A DNA stretch of 64,000 nt from Dehalococcoidia bacterium (GTDB lineage: Bacteria; Chloroflexota; Dehalococcoidia; GIF9; UBA5629), in contig JBEKIW010000004.1 of the NCBI GenBank assembly GCA_050011565.1, forward strand, positions 64,001 through 128,000, written 5' to 3'. Position 1 is the stretch's first letter. Every line of letters begins with the position of its first letter. Shown piece by piece: positions 7,283 to 64,000 of this stretch. Both the position numbers and the translations under genes were made by a program. The notes beneath the pieces are model-generated. The model made no database searches. It saw only the letters and a program-made list of their open reading frames with translations, and was not told where the DNA came from.

Positions 7283-9034
7283 GTGAAAACTAAAGTTTTC
7301 GCTCCGGTTTTATGCCTGGCTTTGCTTTTGACTATTTGTTTGGTAAGTCCTGTTCAGGCTGCAGCGGCAATGGCTCCTAATACTGGTGTGGTTGGGGCTA
7401 CGGTGACCGTATCGGGACTGTTAAAAGGTACTTATTCTATTAAATGGGACAGCGTGGGAATCAAGAGTGGCAATCTATCTGGAGATGGTAGCGTCAGCTT
7501 CACAGTGCCTGATACCGCCGGAGGTAATCATATAGTTACAGTAGACAATCCGACTGGTACTCAGGTATTGTCTGATACTTTCTCTGTTCTTCCGTCTCTA
7601 AGTGTCAGTCCAGATTCAGGTGTAGTCGGTGATGAAATCACTGTCAGCGGTAAGGGCTTCTTAGTCAGCGAAAACAACATTGTAGTTTCTTACGATGGCA
7701 CAAGTGTGAAGACAGGAATCGCGGCCGGTAATACGGGCTCGTGGGAAACAACTTTTTCCTTGCCAGCCTCTGCAAAAGGAAGTCGCACGGTCGATGCATC
7801 GGGGCAAACTACCAAGGCAAGTGACGTTCCCGATGTCACCGTGACCATAAATCCCACCATCAGTATGACTCCTGTATCAGGTAATGTTGGCACCTCAGTT
7901 ACCGTTAGCGGTACCGGCTTTGGCAAGAGTGAAGAAAGCATTCAAGTTACCTACGATGGTGCCAGTGCTAAGACCGGGCTCAGTGCCGACACCAAAGGGT
8001 CTTGGAGTGCTGTCTTCAATATTCCTAACTCAACCAAAGGCGGGCATACAATAGACGCCTCGGGTGCTTCCACAAATGCCGGTGATGTTCCGGATCTCAC
8101 TTTTATCGTGTCTTCGGCCGTGACTGTTAAGCCCGCGTCCGGATCTGTAGGTGATGCTATCACCGTCGCCGGCTGCGGTTTCGGCGGGAGTGAAAGCGGC
8201 ATTACAATAACGCTTGACGGTAACATTGTCAAGAGCGATATCGTAGCTAATAGCGAAGGATGCTGGAACTCATCTATGACAGTACCGTCAACTACCGCAG
8301 GCAATCATGTGATAGATGCCTATGGCGCTTCAACCACGGCCTCTGAAGTTGCGGATACTAAGTTGGTTGTTTTGTCCAAGATGACTCTGGAGCCTGCTGA
8401 GGGCCATGTGGGCAGTAATATAGCGATAAACGGTGCTGGTTTCGGAGCAGGTAAAGTGGTGACTCTTAAATATGACAGTACTGCCCTGGTTAACGAATAC
8501 ACCACCGATGATAAAGGCAATTTTCAGGCGAGCCTGGTAGCTCCTAAAAGTCCTGGCGGTAAGCATAACTTAACTGCTACCGATGCCGGCGGCGCCTCAG
8601 CCACAGCAGTTTTCAATATGGAAACAACTCCACCGTCAGTGCCACAAATTGTGTCGCCGAAGGAAGGCAGCAGGGTAGGCCTTTTCGACCGTATTACTGC
8701 TACTTTTGAGTGGGCTGCTGTTTCTGACCCCAGCGGTGTTAGCTACAGCTTGCAGATATCTACTCAATCTGATTTTGCAACTACGCTGCTGAGTAAGGAA
8801 AACCTGGCTGAGCCTAAGTATACTTTGACTGATGAGGAGGCTTTATCGCGAGGAAAATATTATTGGCGAGTTAAAGCTATAGATGGCGCCAGTAATGATA
8901 GCGGCTGGGCTCAGTCCATAGAATTTAAAGCCGGGCTAATGCCTCTATGGGCATTCATACTTATCGTCATCGTTGCCGCCCTTTTCTTGACTCGTTTGTT
9001 TTTCTTTGTGCGTAATATGAGAAAGGAACACTAG
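7283..9034 (+). CDS. Secreted, C-terminally membrane-anchored protein with repeated IPT/TIG-like Ig domains
   Basis: Signal peptide; repeated P.SG.VG..(I/V)TV.G.GF units; FN3-like YYWRVKAID; C-terminal TM helix plus basic tail. Confidence 0.8.
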   Translation: MKTKVFAPVLCLALLLTICLVSPVQAAAAMAPNTGVVGATVTVSGLLKGTYSIKWDSVGIKSGNLSGDGSVSFTVPDTAGGNHIVTVDNPTGTQVLSDTFSVLPSLSVSPDSGVVGDEITVSGKGFLVSENNIVVSYDGTSVKTGIAAGNTGSWETTFSLPASAKGSRTVDASGQTTKASDVPDVTVTINPTISMTPVSGNVGTSVTVSGTGFGKSEESIQVTYDGASAKTGLSADTKGSWSAVFNIPNSTKGGHTIDASGASTNAGDVPDLTFIVSSAVTVKPASGSVGDAITVAGCGFGGSESGITITLDGNIVKSDIVANSEGCWNSSMTVPSTTAGNHVIDAYGASTTASEVADTKLVVLSKMTLEPAEGHVGSNIAINGAGFGAGKVVTLKYDSTALVNEYTTDDKGNFQASLVAPKSPGGKHNLTATDAGGASATAVFNMETTPPSVPQIVSPKEGSRVGLFDRITATFEWAAVSDPSGVSYSLQISTQSDFATTLLSKENLAEPKYTLTDEEALSRGKYYWRVKAIDGASNDSGWAQSIEFKAGLMPLWAFILIVIVAALFLTRLFFFVRNMRKEH

Positions 9035-25951: not shown

Positions 25952-27577
25952 CTATCTTCTGGCTTTATATCGCCGCCAGGTTATTGTCGCCAAGCCCACT
26001 ATCCCAGCGATAAACACTAGTGGGATAACCAGAGACAAAATAAGGACTCGACTTGACATGGGTATTACTTCAAATTCGTTAGCATCTGACCACAACCCTT
26101 CATTGCCGATGTCATCCACAGCCATTACTCGCCAGGTATAGCTGCCTATAGTTACGATGTCATCTCTGGATAAACTGTACTCTGAATCTACCAGCCCTTT
26201 CTTTAAGACAGTCGGTGATGAAAAGTCATTACCATTGGCAATCTCCAAGTTGTACGTTGTTTTACCCTGGACTTTAATATCCGACCAATCAAATGTAACA
26301 TCAGGCGCCACAAGTCCTCGTTTGTCAGCGCTTTGAAACGAGATGATTCCCATCAGTTGCTTGGCTGTCCCAAGAAATACATCACCAACTGAATCAAAAA
26401 CCGCTAATTTAGCTCCCTGCGCGGGGGATACTAGCGATGGTGCAGTAGGTGTGACTTTGTCGATTATGAAAATAGTTTCTGCCGAACCGCCTGCTCCTCC
26501 TGTAGCTTTCACTTTGTTTTCTTTGATAGTACTTTGAGGGGCTTCAAAACTGGTACTAAAGCTACCTTTATCGTCGGCAATGGCATTTGTACTGAGGTTA
26601 GTTCCTTCAAAGCTCAAGCTAATAGCTTCATCCTTGTTGAAGCCTGTTCCGTTAACAATGACCTTTGTCCCCTTGTTTCCCGAAGGCGGCTCTAATTGGA
26701 TATTTGGAACCACGTTAAAATCCATATCAGGGATGATTCCTTTAGGTGTGAAATCGCTACCAAAGATGCCAAGCAGGTGAGGTCCTTTAGTGGTGGGTGG
26801 AATATTCAAAGTAGCATTCAAGACTCCATCTGTGCCCGCTATAAGATTGACCAGGAATATTTGATTATCCCATGTAAAGGTGATCCCGTCCTCACTGGTT
26901 CGGAAGCCATATCCTTCTACTGTAATCTCCGTTCCTACCGGACCGGAGTTCGGTTGTATCTTAACAAATGGTGCAACAATGAATTTGTGCTCGCCGATTT
27001 CAGAGGCATCAGTCGAACTGCTGAAAGCACTGATATAGTATTCACCCTTAGTCGGCTCGGGGGCGTCAAAATTGACGCTCCACATACCGAGATGGTTGGC
27101 AGTAGCAGAAAACGGGAGGGCGGTTTTATTCCACGTTACTTTAATATCTTTTTCGAAGCAGACGAAGCCGTTACCAGTAACCGTAAGCGATGTATATGGC
27201 CGGCCAATACGCGGAAATATTTCTATTCCGGGCAATACGGTGAATGTAGCTGATGCGGTGCTGCCGGTCCAATTGCTGTCGTCTGTAATTCTAATGGTGT
27301 AGCTGCCTCGACAGACTGTTGGTACCTGCAAATCGAATGCTAACTCACCAGTGTCAGATATAGGTACCTTGCTCAATATAATTTGTTTATCCCAGTAGAT
27401 GGTAGCCAATCGGCCGGAGAATCCATCACCGCTGATATGCACGGATGTATTGACGGTGCCTGACGTAGGCGCTATCGTAATATTAGAAGCATGAGTGGGT
27501 ACAGGGGAGGCCAGAAATATGAGCGGGAGAACAATAATTATAGCTAAGAACGTAAGTAAAACTTTAGAATGTGCCAA
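25952..27577 (-). CDS. Secreted, membrane-anchored IPT/TIG-repeat protein (paralogue of 7283..9034)
   Basis: Signal peptide; P.SG..GT.(I/V)..G.GF repeats; YTWRVMAVD; C-terminal TM helix plus RR tail. Confidence 0.8.
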   Translation of the reverse strand: MAHSKVLLTFLAIIIVLPLIFLASPVPTHASNITIAPTSGTVNTSVHISGDGFSGRLATIYWDKQIILSKVPISDTGELAFDLQVPTVCRGSYTIRITDDSNWTGSTASATFTVLPGIEIFPRIGRPYTSLTVTGNGFVCFEKDIKVTWNKTALPFSATANHLGMWSVNFDAPEPTKGEYYISAFSSSTDASEIGEHKFIVAPFVKIQPNSGPVGTEITVEGYGFRTSEDGITFTWDNQIFLVNLIAGTDGVLNATLNIPPTTKGPHLLGIFGSDFTPKGIIPDMDFNVVPNIQLEPPSGNKGTKVIVNGTGFNKDEAISLSFEGTNLSTNAIADDKGSFSTSFEAPQSTIKENKVKATGGAGGSAETIFIIDKVTPTAPSLVSPAQGAKLAVFDSVGDVFLGTAKQLMGIISFQSADKRGLVAPDVTFDWSDIKVQGKTTYNLEIANGNDFSSPTVLKKGLVDSEYSLSRDDIVTIGSYTWRVMAVDDIGNEGLWSDANEFEVIPMSSRVLILSLVIPLVFIAGIVGLATITWRRYKARR

Positions 27578-44816: not shown

Positions 44817-45659
44817 AAATGGGTTAGTTCATTTGTAGAACTCTATTATTTCTCCTCTCCTAGGTTAATCTTTAGAGAAATTACTGATGAGCCACCCCAT
44901 CGTCTGTTGGCGACTTACGTAACTGAAACATTTGTACACAACCCAAGTGTTCTAAACGCCTGTTTTATAGAAACAGATTATTCTCACCTTTACTTCCTTG
45001 CATTGATAAACTCGTCACTTTTGTCTGAATATTTTTATCGAACAAGTCCAAAGTCGGGCAAGGGACTATTTCCGAAAGTATTAGTCGAAGACATTAGGAG
45101 ATTTCCCATACGCCGCGTCTCCTTTACCACACTTCGTGAACGGCGTGAGGCATTGGTCGGTCAAGGCCGCCAGCTTTACGAGGTAGATCCGTCAAGCGTA
45201 GTCGCGTTCGTGGAAGAGCGTCTTTCCGCTCAACCGGAAGAATCAGATGTGGTGCATGACCTGCTGGCTTTCCTGGCGGAGGAGATGATACGGCTCAACA
45301 AAGAGAAGCAGTCCAGGATTAAAGTGTTTTTATCCTGGCTTGAGAAGGAGATACTGAAAGGCTCCGTTGAAGACCAGAAGAACAAGACAAAGATAAAGGA
45401 CTTCTATAACAATACCTTTGAGGATTTGCTGGATGTGCTTAAGAAAAATAAGATTATCCCGGACCCGTGCCCGTCCAACATACGGGACATTATAGCCAGT
45501 GAATTTTCGGCGGCTGTGAATGCCCTTACTCCACTAAAGACTCGAATCAAAGTAACCGATGACCTCATTGACCAGATAGTCTATAGACTCTACAGCCTTA
45601 CCGATGATGAAATATCCATCGTGGAAGGCAGTATTACCACGACAACTCGAACAAAATGA
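44817..45659 (+). pseudogene. 5'-truncated type IIG-like restriction-modification gene (TaqI_C-like target-recognition/C-terminal part)
   Basis: Frame open from 44817 with no SD or proper start: FSSPRLIFREI..LLATY, FLALINS.L, FPKV, IRRFPI, and the IDQIVYRLYSLTDDEI tail. No MTase motifs. Confidence 0.75.
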
Positions 45660-47020: not shown

Positions 47021-48271
47021 TCAGGCCTGGCTGTCCTTTTTCAGGATATAGTCCCGGACAATTTTAAGAGATGCTTCAACCAGCTCCGGTTCAATAGATT
47101 CAGGGACATCATCCGGTGTGTGATACACGAGGTCCTCACCGAATTTTCCGATATCAAAGCTAATACCCGCCATATTGATGGCTTCAACGCCGAGCTTGCC
47201 GAATTCAGCGGCATCCGTGCTGCCGGCACCGAAGGGCATAGAGGCGATTCGGGCGGGATAACCCAGCGATTTAGCAGTATCCACACAATCCTGCGCCATG
47301 GCACGGGACAGCCTCACGGTTGAATTCAGGTCTTTGTCCAGAAAAGTGAGGTCTTTGAGCTTGTAAAGCGTGTCGATATTAAAGACATAGGTCTTGGTGT
47401 TCAGCAATTCTTGGCCGTGTTTATTACAGAAGGCACGCGCGCCGCGGAGCCCGGCTTCCTCGGCATCGAAAGAGGCTACTATTAAGCGGGTGTGACGCAG
47501 AGGATTTTTGCCCGCTTTTTTAGCCTGATGGAATAGCCGGGCCGTCTCGCCGGCAACGGCTACGGCAATCATGTCATCGCCGGCAGCGGGAGATACCTCT
47601 CCCGTGGTGAAGAAGGCCAGCGGCAGCTGGAAAATGCCGCCGACCATCAGGGCCACAGGTACCCAGAGTAGGATCCCGTCGGGAACAGGGACTTGAAACA
47701 AGGCCAGCACGATCCAAATCAGCGAGACGAGGAAGCCGAGCAGCAAAAACAGTATGCCGGCGTTGATTAGCCTGGCATAGTATTTCGGGGCATAAGCCAG
47801 TAGCTGAAAGACATAGGCGGCGTCATGATGGGCGCTGACCACGACCTGCTGCTTTACCTCGCCTTCAGGTTCGATAGAGCCGTAGACGTTGTAGCCGGTG
47901 GCTTTGGGGAAATAGGGGTCGAGCAATTCCCAGTAGCGGACAAACTGGGCATAAAACATGAAGATTGCCAGGCCGTAGACGACAAGCGCCGTCAGCGGGA
48001 GCCCGAAATATAATAGAACAGCGCCGGCAAAATAAAGGACGACGAGGGCGGGGATATATTTCAGGAAGCTCTTAGGGTGGACCGTGAAATCTTCCACGTG
48101 CACCGAGCCCGGGTCACAGTGCTTAATGAATTCCTGTTTTATGCGGTCGGCGGCATTTTTACAGGCTTCCGTTCCAGCCAGGCGGTTGGGGTAGTTCTGA
48201 ACGACTTCATCGGTGAAGTTGAAGACTCGACGGACGTGGGTTTTGGTTATGTTCAGGCTGCGGGTTTTCAT
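47021..48271 (-). CDS. Membrane-embedded M28-family Zn peptidase
   Basis: SAHHD, AGDD, DAEEAGL.G, NIDT and YHT motifs; four TM segments. Confidence 0.85.
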   Translation of the reverse strand: MKTRSLNITKTHVRRVFNFTDEVVQNYPNRLAGTEACKNAADRIKQEFIKHCDPGSVHVEDFTVHPKSFLKYIPALVVLYFAGAVLLYFGLPLTALVVYGLAIFMFYAQFVRYWELLDPYFPKATGYNVYGSIEPEGEVKQQVVVSAHHDAAYVFQLLAYAPKYYARLINAGILFLLLGFLVSLIWIVLALFQVPVPDGILLWVPVALMVGGIFQLPLAFFTTGEVSPAAGDDMIAVAVAGETARLFHQAKKAGKNPLRHTRLIVASFDAEEAGLRGARAFCNKHGQELLNTKTYVFNIDTLYKLKDLTFLDKDLNSTVRLSRAMAQDCVDTAKSLGYPARIASMPFGAGSTDAAEFGKLGVEAINMAGISFDIGKFGEDLVYHTPDDVPESIEPELVEASLKIVRDYILKKDSQA

Positions 48272-48321
48272 GGCGTTGTCTGCTGCCTATGTTAAGGCGC
48301 AGGTGGATGGTTGTCAACTGG

Positions 48322-48424
48322 AAATCCCCCTTTATCCCCCTTTTTCAAAGGGGGAAATAGGCTTCTCCCTTTCCTAAAGGGAGATTGAGAGGGATTTTAC
48401 CTTCTTACAAATCCCCCTTTATCC
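48322..48424. repeat. Composite palindromic MITE-like element (copy 1 plus a partial copy)
   Basis: AAATCCCCCT..TCCCCCTTT-AAAGGGGGA..TCTCCCTTT-AAAGGGAGA..AGAGGGATTT. Confidence 0.8.
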
Positions 48425-48576
48425 GCTCGAGCGCATTTCCGTTATTTTTGACACTTTACTGAATAGGTTGTACCATTCTCTGCCCAATGATATGTATTTC
48501 CAACGACCGAGCGAGTCAAGATTCGGATGGCTTTCAGCTATTCGACCTTTCGCGAAGTCTATTTTAAGGAGGACTA

Positions 48577-49353
48577 ATGAAGCGTTATAAATACCTGTTA
48601 TTGTGTCTAACTATTGTCGTGTCTATTGTCTCACTGGGTGGTTGTCTTGTATCATCCTCTACTCAGTCTGAAATCCAACTACCAACCCCAAGCAGTACAC
48701 CGGCGATGCCGCAGATTGGGGCACTGGTTACCTTGCCCAGCTTTGCCGATTTGACGGATACCGTTAAGCGTTCGGTGGTAGCCATTGACACCGAGACCGT
48801 TGTTACCAGAAGATATATTCAGCGCACTATCCCGGGTGCCGGCTCGGGATGGATAATCGATGAAAGCGGCATCATCGTAACCAATAATCATGTAATCGAA
48901 GGTGCACAAACTATTACGGTGGAACTGGAAAACGGTAAGACGTACACTCCAGTAAGCATCAAAACTGACCCCGATTCCGATATAGCGATACTTAAGATTA
49001 ATGCCGGGAAGCTACCGGCTCTCAAAGTTGGTGATGCCTCGAAGCTGAGGGTTGGGGATTGGGTGGTAGCGGTAGGAAACGCGCTGGGAATGGGCATAAG
49101 TGTTAAAGACGGTATCGTCAGTCGTCTCGGCGTGAGCATTCAAATATCTCCAAGTGAAACGTATTCCAATCTAATTGAAACCAATGCCGCAATTAATCCC
49201 GGCAACAGCGGCGGTCCGCTGGTCAACCTGGCGGGAGAGGTAATCGGCATAACCAGCCTGAAACTCGCTATTGGCGGCGTCGAAGGGATGGGATATGCCA
49301 TAAATATAGAAGATGCGCTGCCGGTGATTCAGAGGCTATTCAAATCAATTTAG
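48577..49353 (+). CDS. Trypsin-like (S1C/HtrA) serine protease lipoprotein lacking PDZ
   Basis: Lipobox LGGC; catalytic triad in TNNHV, SDIA and NPGNSGG. Confidence 0.9.
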   Translation: MKRYKYLLLCLTIVVSIVSLGGCLVSSSTQSEIQLPTPSSTPAMPQIGALVTLPSFADLTDTVKRSVVAIDTETVVTRRYIQRTIPGAGSGWIIDESGIIVTNNHVIEGAQTITVELENGKTYTPVSIKTDPDSDIAILKINAGKLPALKVGDASKLRVGDWVVAVGNALGMGISVKDGIVSRLGVSIQISPSETYSNLIETNAAINPGNSGGPLVNLAGEVIGITSLKLAIGGVEGMGYAINIEDALPVIQRLFKSI

Positions 49354-49438
49354 TTTACCCGCTTAAATAGAAGCGATGATTTATGATTCTTGCTAATTGT
49401 GGTAAATTTTAGGCTGAATGAAATCAAAGGAGGGCTAT

Positions 49439-49636
49439 ATGGCGGCAAAAAGTGAATATCAACGGCAGCTAACTATTCTTTTAATATCTTTTCTGGCAGG
49501 CTATTTCGGTCTGGACCGTTTCTACCGGGGAGAAATAGCACTGGGCGTTATTAAGATGATAACATGTGGCGGCCTTGGAGTGTGGTATTTAGTGGATGTA
49601 GCTATTGCTGCCTATCAATTTGGAAAGCTTGACTAA
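49439..49636 (+). CDS. TM2-domain small membrane protein
   Basis: FLAGYFGLDRFYRG...K.ITCGGLGVW..VD; SD GGAGG. Confidence 0.85.
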   Translation: MAAKSEYQRQLTILLISFLAGYFGLDRFYRGEIALGVIKMITCGGLGVWYLVDVAIAAYQFGKLD

Positions 49637-49697
49637 TCCCGAAGCTAACCGTTAAATTAAGGCCTTTTCACCTGAGGGCAGGTGACAGCTAGAGCAA

Positions 49698-49840
49698 AAA
49701 TCCCCCTTAATCCCCCTTTTTCTAAGGGGGAGACGAAGAATAAAAGTTAGAAGTAGGGATTTAAGATCCCCCTTAACCCCCCTTTTCCAAAGGGGGAAAT
49801 AGACCTCTCCCTTTCGTAAAGGGAGATTGAGAGGGATTTT
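49698..49840. repeat. Composite palindromic MITE-like elements (copies 2 and 3)
   Basis: 49765-49840 is nearly identical to 48322-48398; 49698-49762 shares the ends and the first hairpin. Confidence 0.8.
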
Positions 49841-49842
49841 AG

Positions 49843-51132
49843 CTACATTGCCGGGTTCGTGACGTGTCCGAGAAATAAGATCGCCCCTGTTTGAATGTCC
49901 CGAATTAGAAAGATAAAGGGGCGGTCAATGGTCACATCAACAACGTTCAATTGTAACGATGTGGTTGTCATAACAACCGCCGTAGCGGCGGCTGCCTCCG
50001 TGCCGACTTCGTCGACAGAAACAAATGCCTTATGAATCACGTCCGATATGTATAGATCGCGCTTGCCGTCCATGCCTGAAAAATCAGCGTTCTCGGTAAA
50101 AGCCACCGGCATACCCATAGCACTGAGGGCTTTCTTCAGGCTGAAGTCGGAGGAGAATTCGTATTTGGGCATAGTCAACACGACTCGCTTGGAAGCTAAG
50201 CTGGCAATAATTCCGTCGACCTTACCGGCATCCAGAGACCTTTCAAACGTAGTGAACTGGCCGGGCTGAGGCAGCAGAATCACCATGGAAAGCTCGCTTC
50301 CGTCATAGGGCAATTCCACCGCCTGATAATCATCACCTTCTGCATAGGCAAACGATTTTGTCTGTTTCATCATTGGCACGGTGACTTCACTGCCGGAGAG
50401 CAAGTGAAAGGTGCCATCGGCGGTGGCATCTTTCTCGAAGGGGAACTGCCAGGCGGCGTTGAAGTAGATGGCGTTGGTCAGGACCAGGCGGGTCATGGCG
50501 TCGATAGCGCCCGGTGGAATCAGGTCTTTAATCCTGCCTTCCGTCTGGTCGCTTACCCAGTCGTTAATAGTGACGCGCGATGGTTCAGGTGCGTTTATGA
50601 AATCGAGCGTTCTGATGCCGGCGCCGTAGTTCTCAGCCAGGATATCGAGGAACTCCTGGAGAAAGGCGTAGCCCTTTTGTCCCCAGATGGCATTTACGAT
50701 ATTGAGTCTGAAGCCTTTCTCATCCTTGCCTTTGGCGCCCTGGCCACGCTGGCTTAGTTCTATATCCAGGCTATTGAGCGCCGGGTGAAGCAGTTCCTGC
50801 GGCAGAGTATAGTGGAGCGTGTTTGCCATTTGCTGCGCCGTATCGCCGCGGGCGCCGGCATAGGTCATAGCCAGTGCCAGCGAAATGCTGTAGGGTGAAA
50901 AGAAAACGTTTTCATCTCCTTTGATTTGTTGATAGGCGTCAAAGGCAAATGCGTTGTTGCCGTTTACCAGCGCGGCCAGGTCAGCCTGACTGGCGACTGG
51001 AGAAGTTATTCTTTGCTTATCCGATTTTACTGTCTGGCTTACCGGCTGCGCACCAGGCGGCACGATACAGGCTGAACTGCCAATCAACATCATAGCAACT
51101 AAAATAACCGAAACCAGCAAATTGTTTTTCAT
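49843..51132 (-). CDS. Serpin lipoprotein
   Basis: NVFFSPYSI, LTNAIYF, VDEVGTEAAAAT hinge and DRPFIF motifs; lipobox SSAC. Confidence 0.95.
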   Translation of the reverse strand: MKNNLLVSVILVAMMLIGSSACIVPPGAQPVSQTVKSDKQRITSPVASQADLAALVNGNNAFAFDAYQQIKGDENVFFSPYSISLALAMTYAGARGDTAQQMANTLHYTLPQELLHPALNSLDIELSQRGQGAKGKDEKGFRLNIVNAIWGQKGYAFLQEFLDILAENYGAGIRTLDFINAPEPSRVTINDWVSDQTEGRIKDLIPPGAIDAMTRLVLTNAIYFNAAWQFPFEKDATADGTFHLLSGSEVTVPMMKQTKSFAYAEGDDYQAVELPYDGSELSMVILLPQPGQFTTFERSLDAGKVDGIIASLASKRVVLTMPKYEFSSDFSLKKALSAMGMPVAFTENADFSGMDGKRDLYISDVIHKAFVSVDEVGTEAAAATAVVMTTTSLQLNVVDVTIDRPFIFLIRDIQTGAILFLGHVTNPAM

Positions 51133-57792: not shown

Positions 57793-58371
57793 ATGCCTAG
57801 AGTAAGAACAGCCAGCGTCGGTGAATTCTATCAGCATTATCCCAAAGTAGCGGCTATACTTACGGTAAACGCCGGAGGCAAGAAGAACGCCATGGCCGCC
57901 GCCTGGCACAGCGCCATTTCCTATAAGCCTCCGCTTTATGGAGTGGCTGTATCACCCAAGAGGTATACTTATAAACTTATCGTAGAATCCGGAGAGTTCG
58001 GCATTAACTTCATGCCCTTTGAAGCTGCCGAGCTTATCGCTTCGGTCGGCGGCAGCGGCGGCAGTGAAATGGATAAGTTTCGTAAGTTTAATGTAGCGGA
58101 AGAGAAGCCCTTGAAAACGACGGTGCCAATACTGAGAGAGGCATATGCCGCTTATGAGTGCAAACTTGTGGATAATAAAACCTATGGCGACCATGCCTGG
58201 ATGGTGGGTGAAATTGTGGCGGTGCATTTTACCGACGATTTATTCACTGACAAGGGAACACTTGATGTTAGCAAGCTGAATCCGGCGCTTTATCTGGGAG
58301 CTGAACTTTACATAACTGCTAAGAGAGAATCGGTTCGATTGCTGGACCGGGAGACTTACGGAAGGCGTTAG
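57793..58371 (+). CDS. Flavin reductase-like (flavoredoxin) protein
   Basis: NAM.AAW...S.KPP, SGEF.IN, YECK and GDH..VGEI motifs. Confidence 0.85.
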
Positions 58372-58399
58372 AAAAAAGTTATCTAAGAGGAGGGCAGCA

Positions 58400-58966
58400 G
58401 TGGTTGACATGCCTAAGATCGAAGCCGCGGTACTTTCTATAATTAAGGCCATCGGGGAGGACCCTCAAAGGGAAGGCCTGCGGGATACGCCGCAGCGCAT
58501 TGCTGACATGTATACTGAGCTTTTTTCGGGTTTGAATATGGATGCCAAAGCGGAGTTGACCGTGGGTTTTGAGGTGGGACATCATGAAATGGTGATACTC
58601 AGAGATATTCCTTTTTACTCTATGTGCGAGCATCATTTTTTACCGTTTTATGGAGTGGCTCATGTGGGCTATATTCCCAGTGAAGAGGGGCGGGTTGTCG
58701 GGGTGAGCAAGCTGGCGCGGGTAGTGGATATCTTTGCTAAACGGCTTCAATTGCAGGAGCGGATGACGTCACAGATTGCCGATGCCATTTGCGAAGCTCT
58801 GCAACCGGACGGTGTGGCGGTGGTCATTCAAGCCGAGCATTTATGCATGACCATGCGCGGCATTAAGAAGCCGGGGAGCAACGTTATAACTTCGGCCACC
58901 AGGGGACTTTTCCGCAGCAGAGCGGCCACACGCGCCGAGTTCCTGTCGTTAGTCCAAGGCAGATAA
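58400..58966 (+). CDS. folE: GTP cyclohydrolase I
   Basis: [23 protein letters not shown] and EHLCM.MRG motifs. Confidence 0.97.
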
Positions 58967-58989
58967 TTTATTCATGGCGCAGGGACTCG

Positions 58990-59658
58990 ATGGGTACTGT
59001 ATCGAAAGCTAAAATGGAAGCTAAAAACCTGATACCACCGTTTATCTCAGAGGTCAAGGGATTTCTTGACGAGGACGAGGGCTTAAGGTTGTTTGAACTG
59101 GCCTCCGAAGCTTGTTCGCTTGGCCCCTGTCTCGAGATTGGCAGCTTTTGTGGGAAGTCCACTATATATATTGGGACTGCCTGTAAAATAAAGGGGAGGA
59201 CGTTGTTCTCAATCGACCATCATCGAGGTTCGGAGGAACAACAACCCGGCCAGCCTTACTTCGATTCTGACCTTATGGATAGCGAGTCCGGCCTGATTGA
59301 CAGCCTTCCTTATTTTCGTGCCGTCATAAAAAAGGCCGGATTGGACGATGTTGTGGTGCCCATGGTAACCAAATCCCATGTCGCAGCTAAAGATTGGGAG
59401 ACGCCTTTGGGCTTAGTGTTCATAGACGGTGGCCACAGCTACGAAACAGTTATTACAGACTATGAGTGCTGGTGTCCGCATTTGCTGCTTGGTGGGTTCC
59501 TTGTCTTCCATGACGTCTTTTTAGACCCGGCTGAAGGCGGGCGGGCTCCTTATGAAGTTTACAAGCTGGCGCTGGCCTCAGGTCAGTTTGAAGAACTGCC
59601 GATGACGAAGACATTAGGTGCGCTACGGTATTGCCAGCCCATGATGGTCAAGAAGTAG
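58990..59658 (+). CDS. Class I SAM methyltransferase (Methyltransf_24-type; MeT1-like)
   Basis: KGF...EG..L, EIGS.CGKST, IDHHRGSEE, FIDGGH and HDVF motifs. Confidence 0.8.
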   Translation: MGTVSKAKMEAKNLIPPFISEVKGFLDEDEGLRLFELASEACSLGPCLEIGSFCGKSTIYIGTACKIKGRTLFSIDHHRGSEEQQPGQPYFDSDLMDSESGLIDSLPYFRAVIKKAGLDDVVVPMVTKSHVAAKDWETPLGLVFIDGGHSYETVITDYECWCPHLLLGGFLVFHDVFLDPAEGGRAPYEVYKLALASGQFEELPMTKTLGALRYCQPMMVKK

Positions 59659-60654
59659 ACTTGTCGCCGACATAGGCCGGAGCATATCGGCCGCTAGGAC
59701 TACCGCTGCCGATGTCCAGGTTGGCTTTTCTTCAGGCCAGATCTCCTTGGTTGGCAATGCTATGCCGTAGAAGTAGGCGCCGTCATCATCCCGCAACTGG
59801 TGAATCCAATTATAAACAGTTGCCGAGTCTTTGTATTCGCCGTGTACAGCCAGGGCAATAGACAGCTCACTTGTTTCAGCGGCCGTGACCCATCCCTGTT
59901 CCAGGCTACAGAGACAGCCAAATCCATCGATGACGAATTTATCCCACCAACTGGACAAACGACGCTTGGCATCGTCGCCGTCGACGACACGGCACATCGC
60001 CGGGTAATACCAGTCCATAGCAAATGTAAATCTATTTTCCTGCGGTGTGGTAAGTACACAGGGCAGTTTATTAATTGCTTTTACCAGAGCGGCATTTGCC
60101 ATTTTCCAGTCAGTTCTGTCCTCCTCCAAGATTGAGGCAATAGAAAGAGCGCTCTTAATACTCAAATATGTTGAGCTACAACTACTTATTAATGCCGTGG
60201 GATATATAGTGCCGGCGCTATCTCTAGCCCAGTAGATTTCGCCATTAGGTCCTCTCATATCTAGTACGAAGTCGATAGCAGCCCGTACAGCCGGCCACAC
60301 CTTCTTGAGAGAAGCAACATCACCGGTGCTCAGGTAATGGTGCCATACCCCTACGGCAATATATGAAATGCTATGTGAAACCTTGTAGGTTTCAAGCGGT
60401 TCACCATCTTTGTACGACGCATACCAGCTCCCATCCTCAAGTTGAATTTCGGATAGCCACTCATAGGCTCGCCGTGCTTCGCCATGAAAATTCCCCACAT
60501 CTAACGCCATCGCGTTTTCAACATGTGTCCACGTGTCTGTAATCCCCCCCTGGAACCAGGGGATTGAGCCATCTGCCTGTTGTACGTCCACTATGGAGCC
60601 AACCGTAGGGTTCAGATATTCTCGTGAGAGATAATTATCAAGCTTCAACGTCAT
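59623..60654 (-). CDS. (alpha/alpha)-toroid protein, usually annotated prenyltransferase-like; MmpH-like glycoside hydrolase candidate
   Basis: Q..DGSIPW, D.W.HVE.AMAL, Q..DGSW, YIAVGVWHH, MDWYYP, WVT.AE..E and WTSAAV motifs. Confidence 0.7.
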   Translation of the reverse strand: MTLKLDNYLSREYLNPTVGSIVDVQQADGSIPWFQGGITDTWTHVENAMALDVGNFHGEARRAYEWLSEIQLEDGSWYASYKDGEPLETYKVSHSISYIAVGVWHHYLSTGDVASLKKVWPAVRAAIDFVLDMRGPNGEIYWARDSAGTIYPTALISSCSSTYLSIKSALSIASILEEDRTDWKMANAALVKAINKLPCVLTTPQENRFTFAMDWYYPAMCRVVDGDDAKRRLSSWWDKFVIDGFGCLCSLEQGWVTAAETSELSIALAVHGEYKDSATVYNWIHQLRDDDGAYFYGIALPTKEIWPEEKPTWTSAAVVLAADMLRPMSATSLLLDHHGLAIP

Positions 60655-60680
60655 TTGGATTGCTCCTTAGGTATTATATC

Positions 60681-61931
60681 TTATTGTGCCTTAAAACTCC
60701 TTTGGCGCTCAATAGCTTCTCCATAGACCTCAGCGGTATGTACAGCGGTGTTTTTCCAGTTAAACATCCCCATTACACGTCTATGTCCCATTTCAGCGAG
60801 GTGTGTGCGCTTATCCGGGTTATCCAGCAGGCCTGAAATTGCCTGGACCAGCGCACCGGTATCAGCCGGAGGTACGAGTATGCCGGCATCTCCAACAATC
60901 TCGGGTAGAGCGCCGGCAGTTGTCGAAATTACGGGTGTTCTACAGCACATGGCCTCAGCCGCCGGCAAGCCAAACCCTTCGTAGACAGACGGCACCACCA
61001 CCATTGTAGCCGTGGAGTAGTGCCGTACCAGTTCATCGGTGGCTATCTGACCTAGATGCGTAACGCAATCAGCTATACCTAAGCTATCGATTAGGCCCTG
61101 CGTGTAGCCGTTTTTCATTGGCTTCCCGACTATAGTGAGCTCTATTTTTCGTTCTAGCTTTAATGCGGCCACAGCTTCCAGCAGGTATTTCAGCCCTTTC
61201 AAAGGTGTATCTCCGCTGTTGATTACAAGCAGGCGATTTATCGAGCGTTTAGTGTCCGTAGCTTGATTGAATACGGAGCTATCAACCCCGTCATAGATTA
61301 CCCGGAGACTATCCTCCGGCAATTGGAAAATGTCGATTATCTGGCGATAAGAATTTTGAGAGCCGGTTATGAAGTGCGAAAGTTTCTTAGCCACTTTAAT
61401 TTGCATATTAGCAAACGCGTACCATCTCCTGATACCCATTTTTTGCCATAAGGACTTAGCTGCTTTGATAGCCAGGTCCCGGTCGATGGCAATAGGGTGA
61501 TGAATGGTGGTTACTACAGGAATACCTAGTTCCTGTATTTTGGGTATGCTGTAAGACAAACTCTGATTGTCGTGAATGACGTCATATTTCTTATACCGGT
61601 TGCCGTTTCGTAAATAACTATAGGCACGCATGCCGAAGGTAAGTGGCTCGGTAAAAAATCCACAGCATTCACCCAGCCATTCAACGAAGTTAGGCGAGGA
61701 GGTTAGTCTTTTAGGATTTATTAGAAAACGTTGCTTTTCCGGTAATGAATACAGGTCGAGGCTGGGCAGTTTGATTAGCTTTATGCCATCATCAAGTTCC
61801 GGGTAGGGTGGGCCGGCAATTACCTCTATATCATGACCGAGTTCTCTAAGAAAACGACTTAGATAGCGGACGTAGATGCCTTGTCCGCCTGAATAGCGAT
61901 AACATCTATAACTGAGCAAGCAGATGTGCAT
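60681..61931 (-). CDS. GT4-family glycosyltransferase (ManT-like, copy 2)
   Basis: LLSYR...SGGQGIY, GPPYP, HDNQSL, TIHHP and EGFGLPAAEAM motifs. Confidence 0.9.
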   Translation of the reverse strand: MHICLLSYRCYRYSGGQGIYVRYLSRFLRELGHDIEVIAGPPYPELDDGIKLIKLPSLDLYSLPEKQRFLINPKRLTSSPNFVEWLGECCGFFTEPLTFGMRAYSYLRNGNRYKKYDVIHDNQSLSYSIPKIQELGIPVVTTIHHPIAIDRDLAIKAAKSLWQKMGIRRWYAFANMQIKVAKKLSHFITGSQNSYRQIIDIFQLPEDSLRVIYDGVDSSVFNQATDTKRSINRLLVINSGDTPLKGLKYLLEAVAALKLERKIELTIVGKPMKNGYTQGLIDSLGIADCVTHLGQIATDELVRHYSTATMVVVPSVYEGFGLPAAEAMCCRTPVISTTAGALPEIVGDAGILVPPADTGALVQAISGLLDNPDKRTHLAEMGHRRVMGMFNWKNTAVHTAEVYGEAIERQRSFKAQ

Positions 61932-61989
61932 TTGACAATTCGCCTGAATGTAAGGTTATCAAAGCAAAGAAGCACAAAAATCCGAGGAC

Positions 61990-62018
61990 ATTTTACCTGT
62001 GTTGGCTAGATATATCAA
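61990..62018 (-). promoter_or_regulatory. Promoter of GT4 copy 2
   Basis: TTGATA-17 bp-TAAAAT. Confidence 0.65.
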
Positions 62019-62122
62019 TAGGCTGTAAGGGTCAGGTACGTTGGTCACTCTTTGGCCTTCTTCCCGGCCAGCGACGCGACTTTCAATATGTACCCTTTTT
62101 TACTGCCTCTCGCGAAAAGAAA

Positions 62123-63373
62123 CTAGGCATTCCTATTCATGTATTTTTGGAAGTCGATTGCCTCGATATAGACATCCGCCGTGTGTTTGGCTGTATTCCG
62201 CCAGTTGAACCTCTGTACTATCCTGCGTCGCCCTATCTGGCTGAGGTGTTTACGTTTGTCCGGGTTGACTATAAGCGTCGAAATGGCATTGACAAGAGCT
62301 TTCGCGTCGGCTGGTGGCACCAGTATACCGGCGTCCCCCACAACCTCAGGCAGGGCGCCGGCAGTTGTCGAGACTGTCGGAGCGCCGCAAGCCATGGCCT
62401 CAGCAGCCGGTAAACCGAAACCTTCATACACCGACGGTACGATTACCAGCCCGGCCAGTCGGTACTGGTTCACAAGCTCAGGAGTGTCAATCTCATCGAT
62501 GAACTTTACATAATCTCTAATGCCAAGCGTATTGATAAGTCTCTGCGTAGTGCGGTTATCTGTTCCTTTTGCCACTACTATTAGCTCAAGGTCGTGTTTC
62601 TGACGCAGTACAGCCAGCGCTTCCAGCATAAATCTTAGACCTTTGACGGGTGTATCTCTGCTGATAACAACCAGGAGCCTGTTATCGAGGCGGGAAACCT
62701 TTGTAGACGGGCTGAAAATATCGGTGTCAATCCCATTGTATACGACCCGTAGCTTGTCTTCAGATATTCTGAACGTGTCAGCGATATGCTGGCGGGCAGT
62801 CTGTGAAACCGTAATGATGTGAGAAAGCCTGCGAGCTACTTTCATCTGCATGTTGATGAAGGAGAACCATCTCCTGAGGCCTAACTTATCTTTAAGTGAA
62901 GTTGCTGACTGAACGGCTAAGTCACGGTCAATGGTCACCGGGTGATGGATGGTTTCGACAACAGGCAATCCGAGTTCCTGAATTTTAAGGATGCCGTATG
63001 ACATAGTCTGATTATCATGGATGATGTCGTATTTATTGTTTCCACCCTGACGCATAAGGTCGTAGGCTCGCATACCGAAGGCCAGAGGTTCCGAGAAGTA
63101 ACCACTCATGGTGCCCGCCCATTCGACCAGGCTGGCATATGTATTTAATTTTCTGGGATCAATGAACAGGCGTCGCACGGATGACATTGAGTAAAGGTCA
63201 AGGCTCGGCAACTTAATAAGTCGCACTTCGTCGTCCAATTCGGGATAGGGTGGTCCAGAAACCACGTCAACCTGGTGACCGAGGTCGCGCAGTGACCGGC
63301 TTAAGTAGCGAAGATAAATGCCCTGGCCTCCTGAATAGCGATAACTTCGGTAGCTAAGCAAGCAGATACGCAT
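62123..63373 (-). CDS. GT4-family glycosyltransferase (ManT-like, copy 1)
   Basis: Same motifs and same 416-aa length as the adjacent paralogue. Confidence 0.9.
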   Translation of the reverse strand: MRICLLSYRSYRYSGGQGIYLRYLSRSLRDLGHQVDVVSGPPYPELDDEVRLIKLPSLDLYSMSSVRRLFIDPRKLNTYASLVEWAGTMSGYFSEPLAFGMRAYDLMRQGGNNKYDIIHDNQTMSYGILKIQELGLPVVETIHHPVTIDRDLAVQSATSLKDKLGLRRWFSFINMQMKVARRLSHIITVSQTARQHIADTFRISEDKLRVVYNGIDTDIFSPSTKVSRLDNRLLVVISRDTPVKGLRFMLEALAVLRQKHDLELIVVAKGTDNRTTQRLINTLGIRDYVKFIDEIDTPELVNQYRLAGLVIVPSVYEGFGLPAAEAMACGAPTVSTTAGALPEVVGDAGILVPPADAKALVNAISTLIVNPDKRKHLSQIGRRRIVQRFNWRNTAKHTADVYIEAIDFQKYMNRNA

Positions 63374-63430
63374 TTACACTAACCGCCTCAATATTAAACA
63401 GAGTCGATGAAAAACAGAAAAACTGATGAC

Positions 63431-63459
63431 ATTTTACCCGTGCCTGCCACGCTTATCAA
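63431..63459 (-). promoter_or_regulatory. Promoter of GT4 copy 1
   Basis: TTGATA-17 bp-TAAAAT, followed by the same GTC as copy 2. Confidence 0.65.
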
Positions 63460-63476
63460 AATGTATTCGCGGATAG

Positions 63477-64000
63477 TCACAGAATATGTGTCAGGAGGAC
63501 TCTGAGGCCAATGGCAATAAGAATGACGCCCCCTATAGCCTCGGCGTATTTACCTAACCAGGTACTTACTTTTCTCCCCAGTGTAAAGCCGGCTATGGTG
63601 ACGCCGAAGGCCACCACTCCAATGATTGAGCAAGCGATAGCGATGTTTACCTCAAGAAAGGCAAATGTCAGTCCGACTGCAAGGGCATCTATGCTCGTGG
63701 CAACTGCCAGAGTCACCAGAATAAGGCCTTTGCTAATGTCGACTCTCTTTTGACTGTCCGAGTGATGAAACGATTCCCATATCATTCTGCCTCCGACTAG
63801 CGCCAGCAAAATGAAGGCCACCCAGTGGTCGTAGCCTGAGATAAAATTTACGACAGTCCGTCCTGCCAACCATCCCAAAGCCGGCATAATGGCCTGGAAA
63901 GCTCCGAAGGTAGCTGCAGTACGCAGTATTGGGGCGAAAGAAAAGGTTTTTATGTAGATACTGCCGCTAAGGGCTACAGCAAAACAATCGGCAGACAACG
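63477..64000 (-). CDS. mntP: Manganese efflux pump, 5' end beyond the window
   Basis: LSADCFAV, FQAIMP..GW, DHWVAF.LL..VG.RMI and ATSIDALAVG motifs. Confidence 0.9.
   Translation of the reverse strand, partial: LSADCFAVALSGSIYIKTFSFAPILRTAATFGAFQAIMPALGWLAGRTVVNFISGYDHWVAFILLALVGGRMIWESFHHSDSQKRVDISKGLILVTLAVATSIDALAVGLTFAFLEVNIAIACSIIGVVAFGVTIAGFTLGRKVSTWLGKYAEAIGGVILIAIGLRVLLTHIL

Follow-up and report, generated by a model that had tools for sequence, protein, structure and literature searches.

Methylmannose polysaccharide (MMP) and its glucose counterpart, methylglucose lipopolysaccharide (MGLP), are regarded as hallmarks of mycobacteria and their close relatives. A stretch of 64,000 nucleotides from an uncultured Dehalococcoidia bacterium (contig JBEKIW010000004.1, positions 64,001 to 128,000; here termed the window) raises the question of whether a polysaccharide of this type is also made outside that group. 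A preliminary description of the window had noted a methyltransferase gene converging, with a 36-bp overlap, on a gene for an (alpha/alpha)-toroid protein that lies downstream of two glycosyltransferase family 4 (GT4) genes, and had read this arrangement as an MMP-like biosynthetic cluster. All of these open reading frames (ORFs), the overlap and the quoted motifs are present in the coordinates and translations, with SIDHHRGSEE and FIDGGH in the methyltransferase and TDTWTHVENAMAL, MDWYYP and WVTAAE in the 343-amino-acid toroid protein. On the evidence set out below, the locus probably encodes a cytoplasmic MMP-type pathway, producing a 1-O-methyl-capped alpha-(1->4)-mannan with self-recycling.

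MMP consists of 11-14 alpha-(1->4)-linked 3-O-methylmannoses with a 1-O-methyl aglycon, and in mycobacteria the corresponding four-gene cluster has the order meT1-mmpH-pmeT3-manT (PMC9883506). As described in the text of that study, the mannosyltransferase ManT extends only acceptors of at least three mannoses, with a preference of about 40-fold for those that are methylated; MmpH produces primers by cleaving mature MMP; free reducing ends are capped by MeT1; and pMeT3, the putative 3-O-methyltransferase, is still a putative enzyme in mycobacteria. MmpH and ManT of Mycobacterium hassiacum have been solved as 7QSJ and 7QSG respectively (PMC9883506).

For each of the four window proteins, the top solved-structure match is its counterpart among the M. 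hassiacum MMP enzymes, so that best hits and folds, far from being unrelated to ManT, MeT1 and MmpH, lead directly to them and bear out the earlier identification. The 222-amino-acid methyltransferase has a Pfam Methyltransf_24 domain (86.3 bits; cut-off 26.3) and matches MeT1 (6G7D) over residues 20-205 with an E-value of 2.8e-52, the runner-up having an E-value of 0.73. The toroid protein matches MmpH (7QSJ) at 2.8e-76. Both 416-amino-acid proteins carry the Pfam domains Glycos_transf_1 and Glyco_transf_4 and match ManT (7QSG), ManT-A at 9.8e-97 (327.6 bits) and ManT-B at 1.9e-98 (333 bits); the next GT4 enzyme in the PDB scores 95 bits (about 1e-26), and MshA and PimA structures score 52-77 bits against 328-333 for ManT. 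An MshA/PimA-type identity is not supported, as the NCBIfam MshA model, whose cut-off is 462.5 bits, scores the two proteins at 107.9 and 112.9; none of the four cluster proteins exceeded a curated NCBIfam cut-off. The preliminary description was right to place two GT4 genes beside the toroid gene, and both are ManT-like; the second is a second ManT paralogue and not a different enzyme.

An AlphaFold2 model of the toroid protein (predicted local distance difference test score 90.8; predicted template-modelling (TM) score 0.91) was searched with Foldseek, which returned 7QSJ first with a TM score of 0.91 and 39% identity; the next structure reached 0.74. Behind MmpH came (alpha/alpha)6 glycosidases (TM 0.65-0.74) and terpene cyclases (TM about 0.55-0.65). 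The inverting glycosidases of GH15 and GH125 (clan GH-L) and squalene-hopene cyclase-like toroids thus have the (alpha/alpha)6 barrel in common with the window protein, but with only 10-16% identity. A prenyltransferase or cyclase reading of the toroid was rejected, with SQHop_cyclase_C at 16.3 bits (cut-off 26.1), TIGR01507 at 17.2 bits against 431, and cyclase TM scores of 0.55-0.65 against 0.91 for MmpH. Several Chloroflexi homologues are named 'phenyltransferase domain-containing protein' by NCBI, which fits the earlier remark that MmpH is often misannotated as a prenyltransferase, and the present assignment corrects this name, and that of 'hypothetical protein', in Chloroflexota metagenome-assembled genomes (MAGs).

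GTDB species representatives were scanned and the best 80 of at least 599 confirmed stretches were analysed, with coarse phylum labels taken from the record titles. The 80 loci comprised five from Chloroflexota (four Dehalococcoidia/Dehalococcoidales and one Chloroflexia), 31 from Desulfobacterota or 'delta proteobacteria', 25 from Gammaproteobacteria or unspecified Pseudomonadota, one from Alphaproteobacteria, five Actinomycetota MAGs and 13 Streptomyces. The same four genes, with manT-A, manT-B and mmpH in that order on one strand and meT1 convergent, were found in the window and in all five Chloroflexota loci. By ORF coordinates meT1 and mmpH overlap in each of the five, by 4-48 bp; by the ends of tblastn matches they overlap in four and are separated by a 21 bp gap in L004. 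The grouping of the four genes is not due to chance, as it recurs in Chloroflexota and the same families co-occur in other phyla. The features of the locus are collected in Table 1.

Table 1. Features of the MMP-type locus (positions in the window)
Feature	Position	Strand	Basis
MeT1-like S-adenosylmethionine-dependent 1-O-methyltransferase, 222 aa	58990-59658	+	Pfam and PDB match
MmpH-like (alpha/alpha)6 endo-alpha-(1->4)-mannosidase, 343 aa	59623-60654	-	PDB match, AlphaFold2 model, Foldseek
Convergent 3' overlap of meT1 and mmpH, 36 bp	59623-59658	.	ORF coordinates
ManT paralogue B (GT4, 416 aa), 27 bp upstream of mmpH	60681-61931	-	Match to 7QSG
Promoter-like site TTGATA-N17-TAAAAT before ManT-B	61990-62018	-	10/12 consensus matches
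ManT paralogue A (GT4, 416 aa)	62123-63373	-	Match to 7QSG
Promoter-like site TTGATA-N17-TAAAAT before ManT-A	63431-63459	-	10/12 consensus matches

The four proteins are orthologous to MeT1, MmpH and ManT and retain their catalytic residues. In the MeT1 family, D76, H77, H78, E82, E83, D146, H149, H174 and D175, which make up the DHH, EE, DGGH and HD motifs, are invariant in all 54 rows of the alignment; of 56 positions conserved elsewhere only two are altered in all Chloroflexota rows, both conservatively, and MeT1 is almost unchanged in Chloroflexota. Mutagenesis has identified Glu262, Asp47 and Asp50 in MmpH and Lys240, Glu313 and Glu321 in ManT of M. hassiacum (PMC9883506). The window MmpH retains the equivalents of Asp47 and Glu262, taken as the acid/base pair, and of Glu265 as D40, E260 and E263; Trp49, Met215, Tyr219, Glu262 and Glu265 are invariant in 81/81 MmpH rows, and position 47 is Asp in 78 of them, Glu in two and Asn in one. 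Equivalents of ManT Gly15, His142, Lys240, Glu313, Gly314, Phe315 and Glu321 are present in both paralogues and in 71/71 ManT rows; Glu313, Gly314 and Phe315 are the described mannosyl contacts, and Leu291 and Asp293 the proposed guanine contacts (PMC9883506).

By comparison with the cluster of nontuberculous mycobacteria, the window shares clustered MeT1, MmpH and ManT orthologues, the MmpH fold, the cytoplasmic, soluble nature of the proteins and the mutagenesis-tested residues Asp47 and Glu262 of MmpH and Lys240, Glu313 and Glu321 of ManT. It differs in having two ManT paralogues where mycobacteria have one, in lacking pMeT3 within the cluster, in its gene order, with meT1 convergent and overlapping, in the replacement of Asp50, Asn101 and Phe102 of MmpH and Asp293 of ManT, and in its host, which belongs to the Dehalococcoidia and not to the Actinobacteria. 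No hydrophobic segment or signal-like N-terminus was found in the four cluster proteins (maximum Kyte-Doolittle average over 19 residues at most 1.45), and an Rfam scan of positions 58300-64000 gave no match at E-values up to 0.1.

In the scheme that we propose, ManT-A and ManT-B would lengthen alpha-(1->4)-mannooligosaccharides, with a nucleotide-mannose (presumably GDP-mannose) as the donor; the 1-OH of the reducing end would be methylated by the MeT1-like enzyme; and the MmpH-like endo-mannosidase would cut mature chains into primers to be re-extended, as in the mycobacterial self-recycling scheme. By analogy with the mycobacterial enzymes, we infer which sugar is donated, how the units are linked, that the chain carries a 1-O-methyl cap and that it is recycled.

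Several observations weigh against this scheme, and they concern the hydrolase, the sugar donor and the 3-O-methylation step. Asp50, Asn101 and Phe102 of MmpH form a putative adjacent sugar subsite that is described as highly conserved in Actinobacteria, and a D50A substitution drastically lowered the activity of the M. hassiacum enzyme (PMC9883506). The equivalent residues in the window protein are T43, H94 and S95. Thr replaces Asp50 in 6/6 Chloroflexota rows (elsewhere Asp in 71/75 and Asn in 4/75), His replaces Asn101 in 6/6 (Asn in 74/75 of the others), and Phe102 is replaced in Chloroflexota rows by Ser, Val or Ala. Among 109 close metagenome relatives, Thr stands at Asp50 in 103 of the 106 that cover the residue and His at Asn101 in 108/108. 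More broadly, 82 MmpH positions reach a conservation of 90% or more outside Chloroflexota, and nine of them, including Asp50 and Asn101, differ in every one of the six Chloroflexota rows; the corresponding count for ManT is 5/100, with one of the five being a start-codon artefact. The putative MmpH sugar subsite is remodelled in the Chloroflexota lineage. The retention of Asp or Glu at position 47 alongside the Asp50 to Thr change favours Asp47 as the catalytic acid of MmpH, provided that the enzyme is active.

With regard to the donor, ManT is proposed to contact guanine through Asp293, a position that is occupied by Thr in 11/12 Chloroflexota rows and in 17/23 gammaproteobacterial rows, and by Asp in 12/12 from Streptomyces; GDP-mannose is therefore presumed as the donor and not confirmed. 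Genes for the synthesis of GDP-mannose were not seen in the 64-kb window.

With regard to 3-O-methylation, the mycobacterial cluster to which the locus had been likened includes a MeT3 gene, and this part of the likeness did not hold: relatives of ManT, MeT1 and MmpH are present, but no MeT3 homologue was found in the whole window. With eight slot proteins and others as queries, no tblastn match to pMeT3 fell below an E-value of 0.1, and none of the 55 window ORFs scanned has a Methyltransf_11-type domain. Matches at 60451-60648 were discarded as artefacts, three of the query ORFs having run into the MmpH frame. Nor was pMeT3 found within 7-10 kb on either side of the cluster in four of the five relatives (L002-L005). 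The window stops 627 bp upstream of manT-A, where the syntenic locus L005 has MntP, UPF0047, PyrK-like and CarB genes.

These findings bring in the alternative that survives best, namely that the product is an alpha-(1->4)-mannan without 3-O-methylation, or otherwise modified, pMeT3 having been lost, the second ManT occupying its operon place and the MmpH pocket having adapted to a chain that is unmethylated and more polar. A glycan of this kind would bind acyl chains poorly and might serve as a storage or stress polymer. In favour of this alternative, neither the window nor the loci of four of the five relatives contain pMeT3, yet in the other phyla a Methyltransf_11/31-type gene of about 240 amino acids stands directly upstream of mmpH in 63/75 loci; the three putative subsite residues change together only in the Chloroflexota clade, the aromatic Phe102 giving way to Ser, Val or Ala; and ManT of M. 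hassiacum does extend unmethylated tri- and tetramannosides, if about 40-fold less efficiently (PMC9883506). The fifth relative, L001, argues the other way. Its cluster proteins are 72-79% identical to those of the window and, like the window, it has two ManT paralogues and an MmpH with the Thr and His replacements, but it retains a pMeT3 gene directly upstream of manT-A, and hence the remodelling of MmpH is independent of the loss of pMeT3. The L001 protein aligns over its full length with slot proteins of other phyla (38-44% identity), including the C-terminal extension, and the protein clusters that share 65-100% identity with it number at least 120. Only five of these clusters name a taxon, four being Chloroflexi, Chloroflexota or Dehalococcoidia and one KSB1. 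With pMeT3-family proteins this common among those labelled Chloroflexota, an unlinked copy in the present genome is plausible. On balance we consider this alternative of an unmethylated or otherwise modified mannan unlikely. The near-unchanged MeT1, and the co-occurrence in L001 of pMeT3, both ManTs and an MmpH with these substitutions, favour a product that is still methylated; the ManT duplication and the remodelled MmpH subsite suggest that it is probably a variant of MMP and not identical to it.

In two proteins, P0259 (590 amino acids) and P0286 (606 amino acids), an N-terminal Methyltransf_11 domain resembling pMeT3 is fused to a C-terminal MmpH domain. A gene-calling artefact is possible; taken at face value, the fusions are a Rosetta-stone hint that the two enzymes may have a common substrate.

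The two ManT paralogues are 60% identical. In a tree of 71 ManT rows the A clade (six rows; support of 99 in the SH-like approximate likelihood-ratio test, SH-aLRT) is sister to the B clade (six rows; 96), and the two are jointly monophyletic with a support of 100, which points to one duplication at the base of the Chloroflexota group. Functional divergence could not be read from the sequences: only six sites are fixed differently between the clades, all conservatively, and the identities of the N- and C-domains are similar.

A promoter-like site precedes each paralogue (Table 1). A generic promoter scan showed no enrichment, with nine sites against 7.8 +/- 3.1 in shuffled sequences, and only the two sites conserved across genomes are reported. 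That before ManT-B lies in the same place in all six Chloroflexota sequences, and the motif before ManT-A also precedes ManT-A in L002 and L005. When slight degeneracy was allowed, the motif occurred nine times in the six Chloroflexota sequences, each time directly upstream of a ManT paralogue, and once in the 2.54 Mb of the other 75 loci. We infer that the sites act as promoters, in which case manT-A alone, and manT-B together with mmpH across the 27-bp gap, are likely transcription units.

Retention of two ManTs could reflect a division between priming and elongation, formation of a heteromer, or dosage, each of which is possible. In a bolder picture, doubtful though worth stating, polymethylated alpha-(1->4)-mannans would be common among bacteria rather than confined to Actinobacteria, occurring in Dehalococcoidia, syntrophic Desulfobacterota and marine Gammaproteobacteria; in Dehalococcoidia the separately promoted ManTs would share labour, one priming short acceptors or initiating de novo and the other elongating, and MmpH would have been re-fitted to a chemically different chain. 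If it is true, the split would free Dehalococcoidia from the pre-existing polymer that mycobacterial ManT needs. The Chloroflexota form of the cluster offers a natural experiment both on chain priming, as mycobacterial ManT cannot use mono- or dimannosides, and on whether Asp47 or Asp50 is the MmpH catalytic acid.

The gene families extend well beyond Chloroflexota. In the 75 other loci, ManT lies upstream of the Methyltransf_11/31-type gene in 59, with four more cut by contig ends; MeT1 is found anywhere in the locus in 49, and all four families are found in 47. The arrangement manT-pmeT3-mmpH occurs in 23 loci of Gammaproteobacteria or Pseudomonadota and in 18 of Desulfobacterota. Clusters of Desulfobacterota (Syntrophales, Smithella, Desulfomonilia) and Gammaproteobacteria (Halieaceae, Cellvibrionaceae, Pseudomaricurvus hydrocarbonicus) have ManT, pMeT3, MmpH and MeT1 linked as families and, unlike the window, a single ManT with pMeT3 in its slot. 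Streptomyces clusters also share the protein families of the window, with manT, pmeT3 and mmpH adjacent in 12/13 loci, the remaining one (L076) being cut by a contig end upstream of pMeT3; they differ from the window in their single ManT, their adjacent pMeT3, their retention of Asp50, Asn101 and Phe102, and the position of meT1 2.5-10 kb away. S. griseus is described as having an acetylated MMP (PMC9883506), and the Streptomyces clusters illustrate that MMP-type products can differ in decoration.

In a protein set clustered at 90% identity, 1441 MmpH-like relatives were found at E-values of 1e-10 or below, and the 109 nearest (55-99% identity) are Chloroflexi, Chloroflexota or Dehalococcoidia wherever a taxon is named. 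An exhaustive scan of 1.84 billion representatives of 50% clusters gave 181 at 1e-30 or below and 745 at 1e-10 or below; the whole Chloroflexota MmpH group collapses there into one representative (78% identity), the next being at 43%.

This spread bears on a second alternative, in which the locus serves a different mannose-containing end product (for example a glycolipid, a small mannoside solute, or a glycan on proteins or the S-layer), and homology to the MMP enzymes reflects shared chemistry only. Envelope glycan synthesis commonly employs GT4 and Methyltransf_24 enzymes, matches to NCBIfam models are sub-threshold only (for example MshA, 108-113 bits against 462.5), and the donor-base contact Asp293 is not conserved, all of which would suit such a product. 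Set against this, each of the three enzyme families has its MMP enzyme as nearest solved relative by 50-70 orders of magnitude in E-value, at least four phyla preserve the linkage of the families, neither a flippase nor a polyprenyl-phosphate transferase was found, signal peptides and membrane segments are likewise absent, and an endo-hydrolase inside a biosynthetic cluster suits the MMP recycling scheme; we therefore regard this alternative as improbable.

A MmpH-like gene without ManT, pMeT3 or MeT1 in the locus was seen in 12 Desulfobacterota loci (L026, L029, L030, L032, L037, L038, L043, L047, L048, L059, L064 and L066). The equivalents of Asp47, Asp50 and Glu262 are intact in all 12, and in three of the loci the sequence upstream is shorter than 600 bp. 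In L029 the MmpH-like gene is followed by a hexapeptide transferase gene and preceded by thiolase and acyl-CoA dehydrogenase genes.

A catabolic cluster that degrades and re-uses MMP-like glycans from other bacteria, as the hydrolytic nature of MmpH and the 12 solitary MmpH-like genes might suggest, is very hard to credit, since the window hydrolase lies 27 bp downstream of a synthase paralogue on the same strand, has no linked transporter or secretion signal, and is accompanied by two glycosyltransferases and a capping methyltransferase that have no catabolic role.

We return to the MMP-type pathway and its history. In the ManT tree Chloroflexota are sister to Desulfobacterota (SH-aLRT 96), whereas in the MmpH tree they group with Actinomycetota (SH-aLRT 85). 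Both trees were built by a quick method without bootstraps and, as they are incongruent, we make no claim on the donor lineage or origin of the cluster. The ratio of nonsynonymous to synonymous substitution rates (dN/dS) was 0.05-0.09 in four of seven comparisons, with dS above 1.5 in those four and undefined in the other three; with synonymous sites saturated, purifying selection is shown qualitatively only.

The statement in the preliminary description that MMPs are characterised only in Actinobacteria agrees with our search of the full-text literature, judged on titles and the starts of abstracts and with subscription journals outside its scope, which turned up no report of MMP or MMP genes outside Actinobacteria; no description of the Desulfobacterota or Gammaproteobacteria clusters was found in the searchable literature. 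The published cluster survey, as described in the text of its source, covers mycobacteria and related actinobacteria only (PMC9883506). The text supplement of that study has no mention of Chloroflexi, Dehalococcoid-, proteobacteri-, Streptomyces or Desulf-, though its PDF supplements (Table S1, Figs S1, S7 and S10) may list other taxa. A gene set spread over at least four phyla, including uncultured, anaerobe-rich lineages, makes the function of MMP testable outside mycobacteria. All four genes, manT, pmeT3, mmpH and meT1, lie side by side in the cultured Pseudomaricurvus hydrocarbonicus JCM 30134 (L070:7958-11793), a practical organism for testing MMP outside actinobacteria.

Other genes are interposed between mmpH and meT1 in some relatives. 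Two Desulfobacterota loci (L007:11022-13394 and L018:10920-13296) have there a B12-binding radical SAM enzyme of about 525 amino acids, joined in L018 by a hexapeptide-repeat acyltransferase, which suggests that acylated or C-methylated variants of the glycan may exist. A gammaproteobacterial MAG (L045:3691-6562) has a cytochrome P450 and an AMP-binding ligase in this place.

MMP, which binds long-chain acyl-CoA, is proposed to act in acyl-CoA metabolism in mycobacteria, and the cluster had been said to fit the many acyl-CoA genes of the window. These genes are real, and include three AMP-binding ligases, two acyl-CoA dehydrogenases, thiolase-like genes and two CoA-transferase subunits, but they lie 5-40 kb from the cluster, beyond housekeeping genes (PPIase, hom, thrC, flavin reductase and folE). 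The closest species representative, the Dehalococcoidales MAG L005, remains syntenic past the cluster, with MntP on the upstream side, FolE, flavin reductase and ThrC on the downstream side and protein identities of 75-90%, which places the window in a Dehalococcoidia bacterium; across the Chloroflexota relatives the flanks vary, being CarB/PyrK, NadE/His_Phos_1 or RsmD/CoaD. Given this distance and the variable flanks in the five relatives, the neighbourhood lends no support to an acyl-CoA link, which is not supported by conserved synteny and would follow only from the mycobacterial proposal.

Directly upstream of manT-A, L003 (6513-7259) and L004 (6520-7266) have a gene for a 248-amino-acid protein of the histidine-phosphatase superfamily, which may be a housekeeping phosphoglycerate mutase or a member of the cluster.

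Elsewhere in the window, genes for an M28 peptidase (47021-48271), a trypsin-like peptidase (48577-49353) and a serpin (49843-51132) lie together at 47021-51132; bacterial serpins are uncommon. Two proteins of about 540-580 amino acids (7283-9034 and 25952-27577) have an IPT/TIG domain as their sole Pfam match. Finally, a 250-amino-acid ORF at 44907-45659, with weak matches to the Ydc2 resolvase catalytic domain and the TaqI C-terminal specificity domain, falls within a shift in GC content from 0.433 to 0.537 between 42 and 48 kb.

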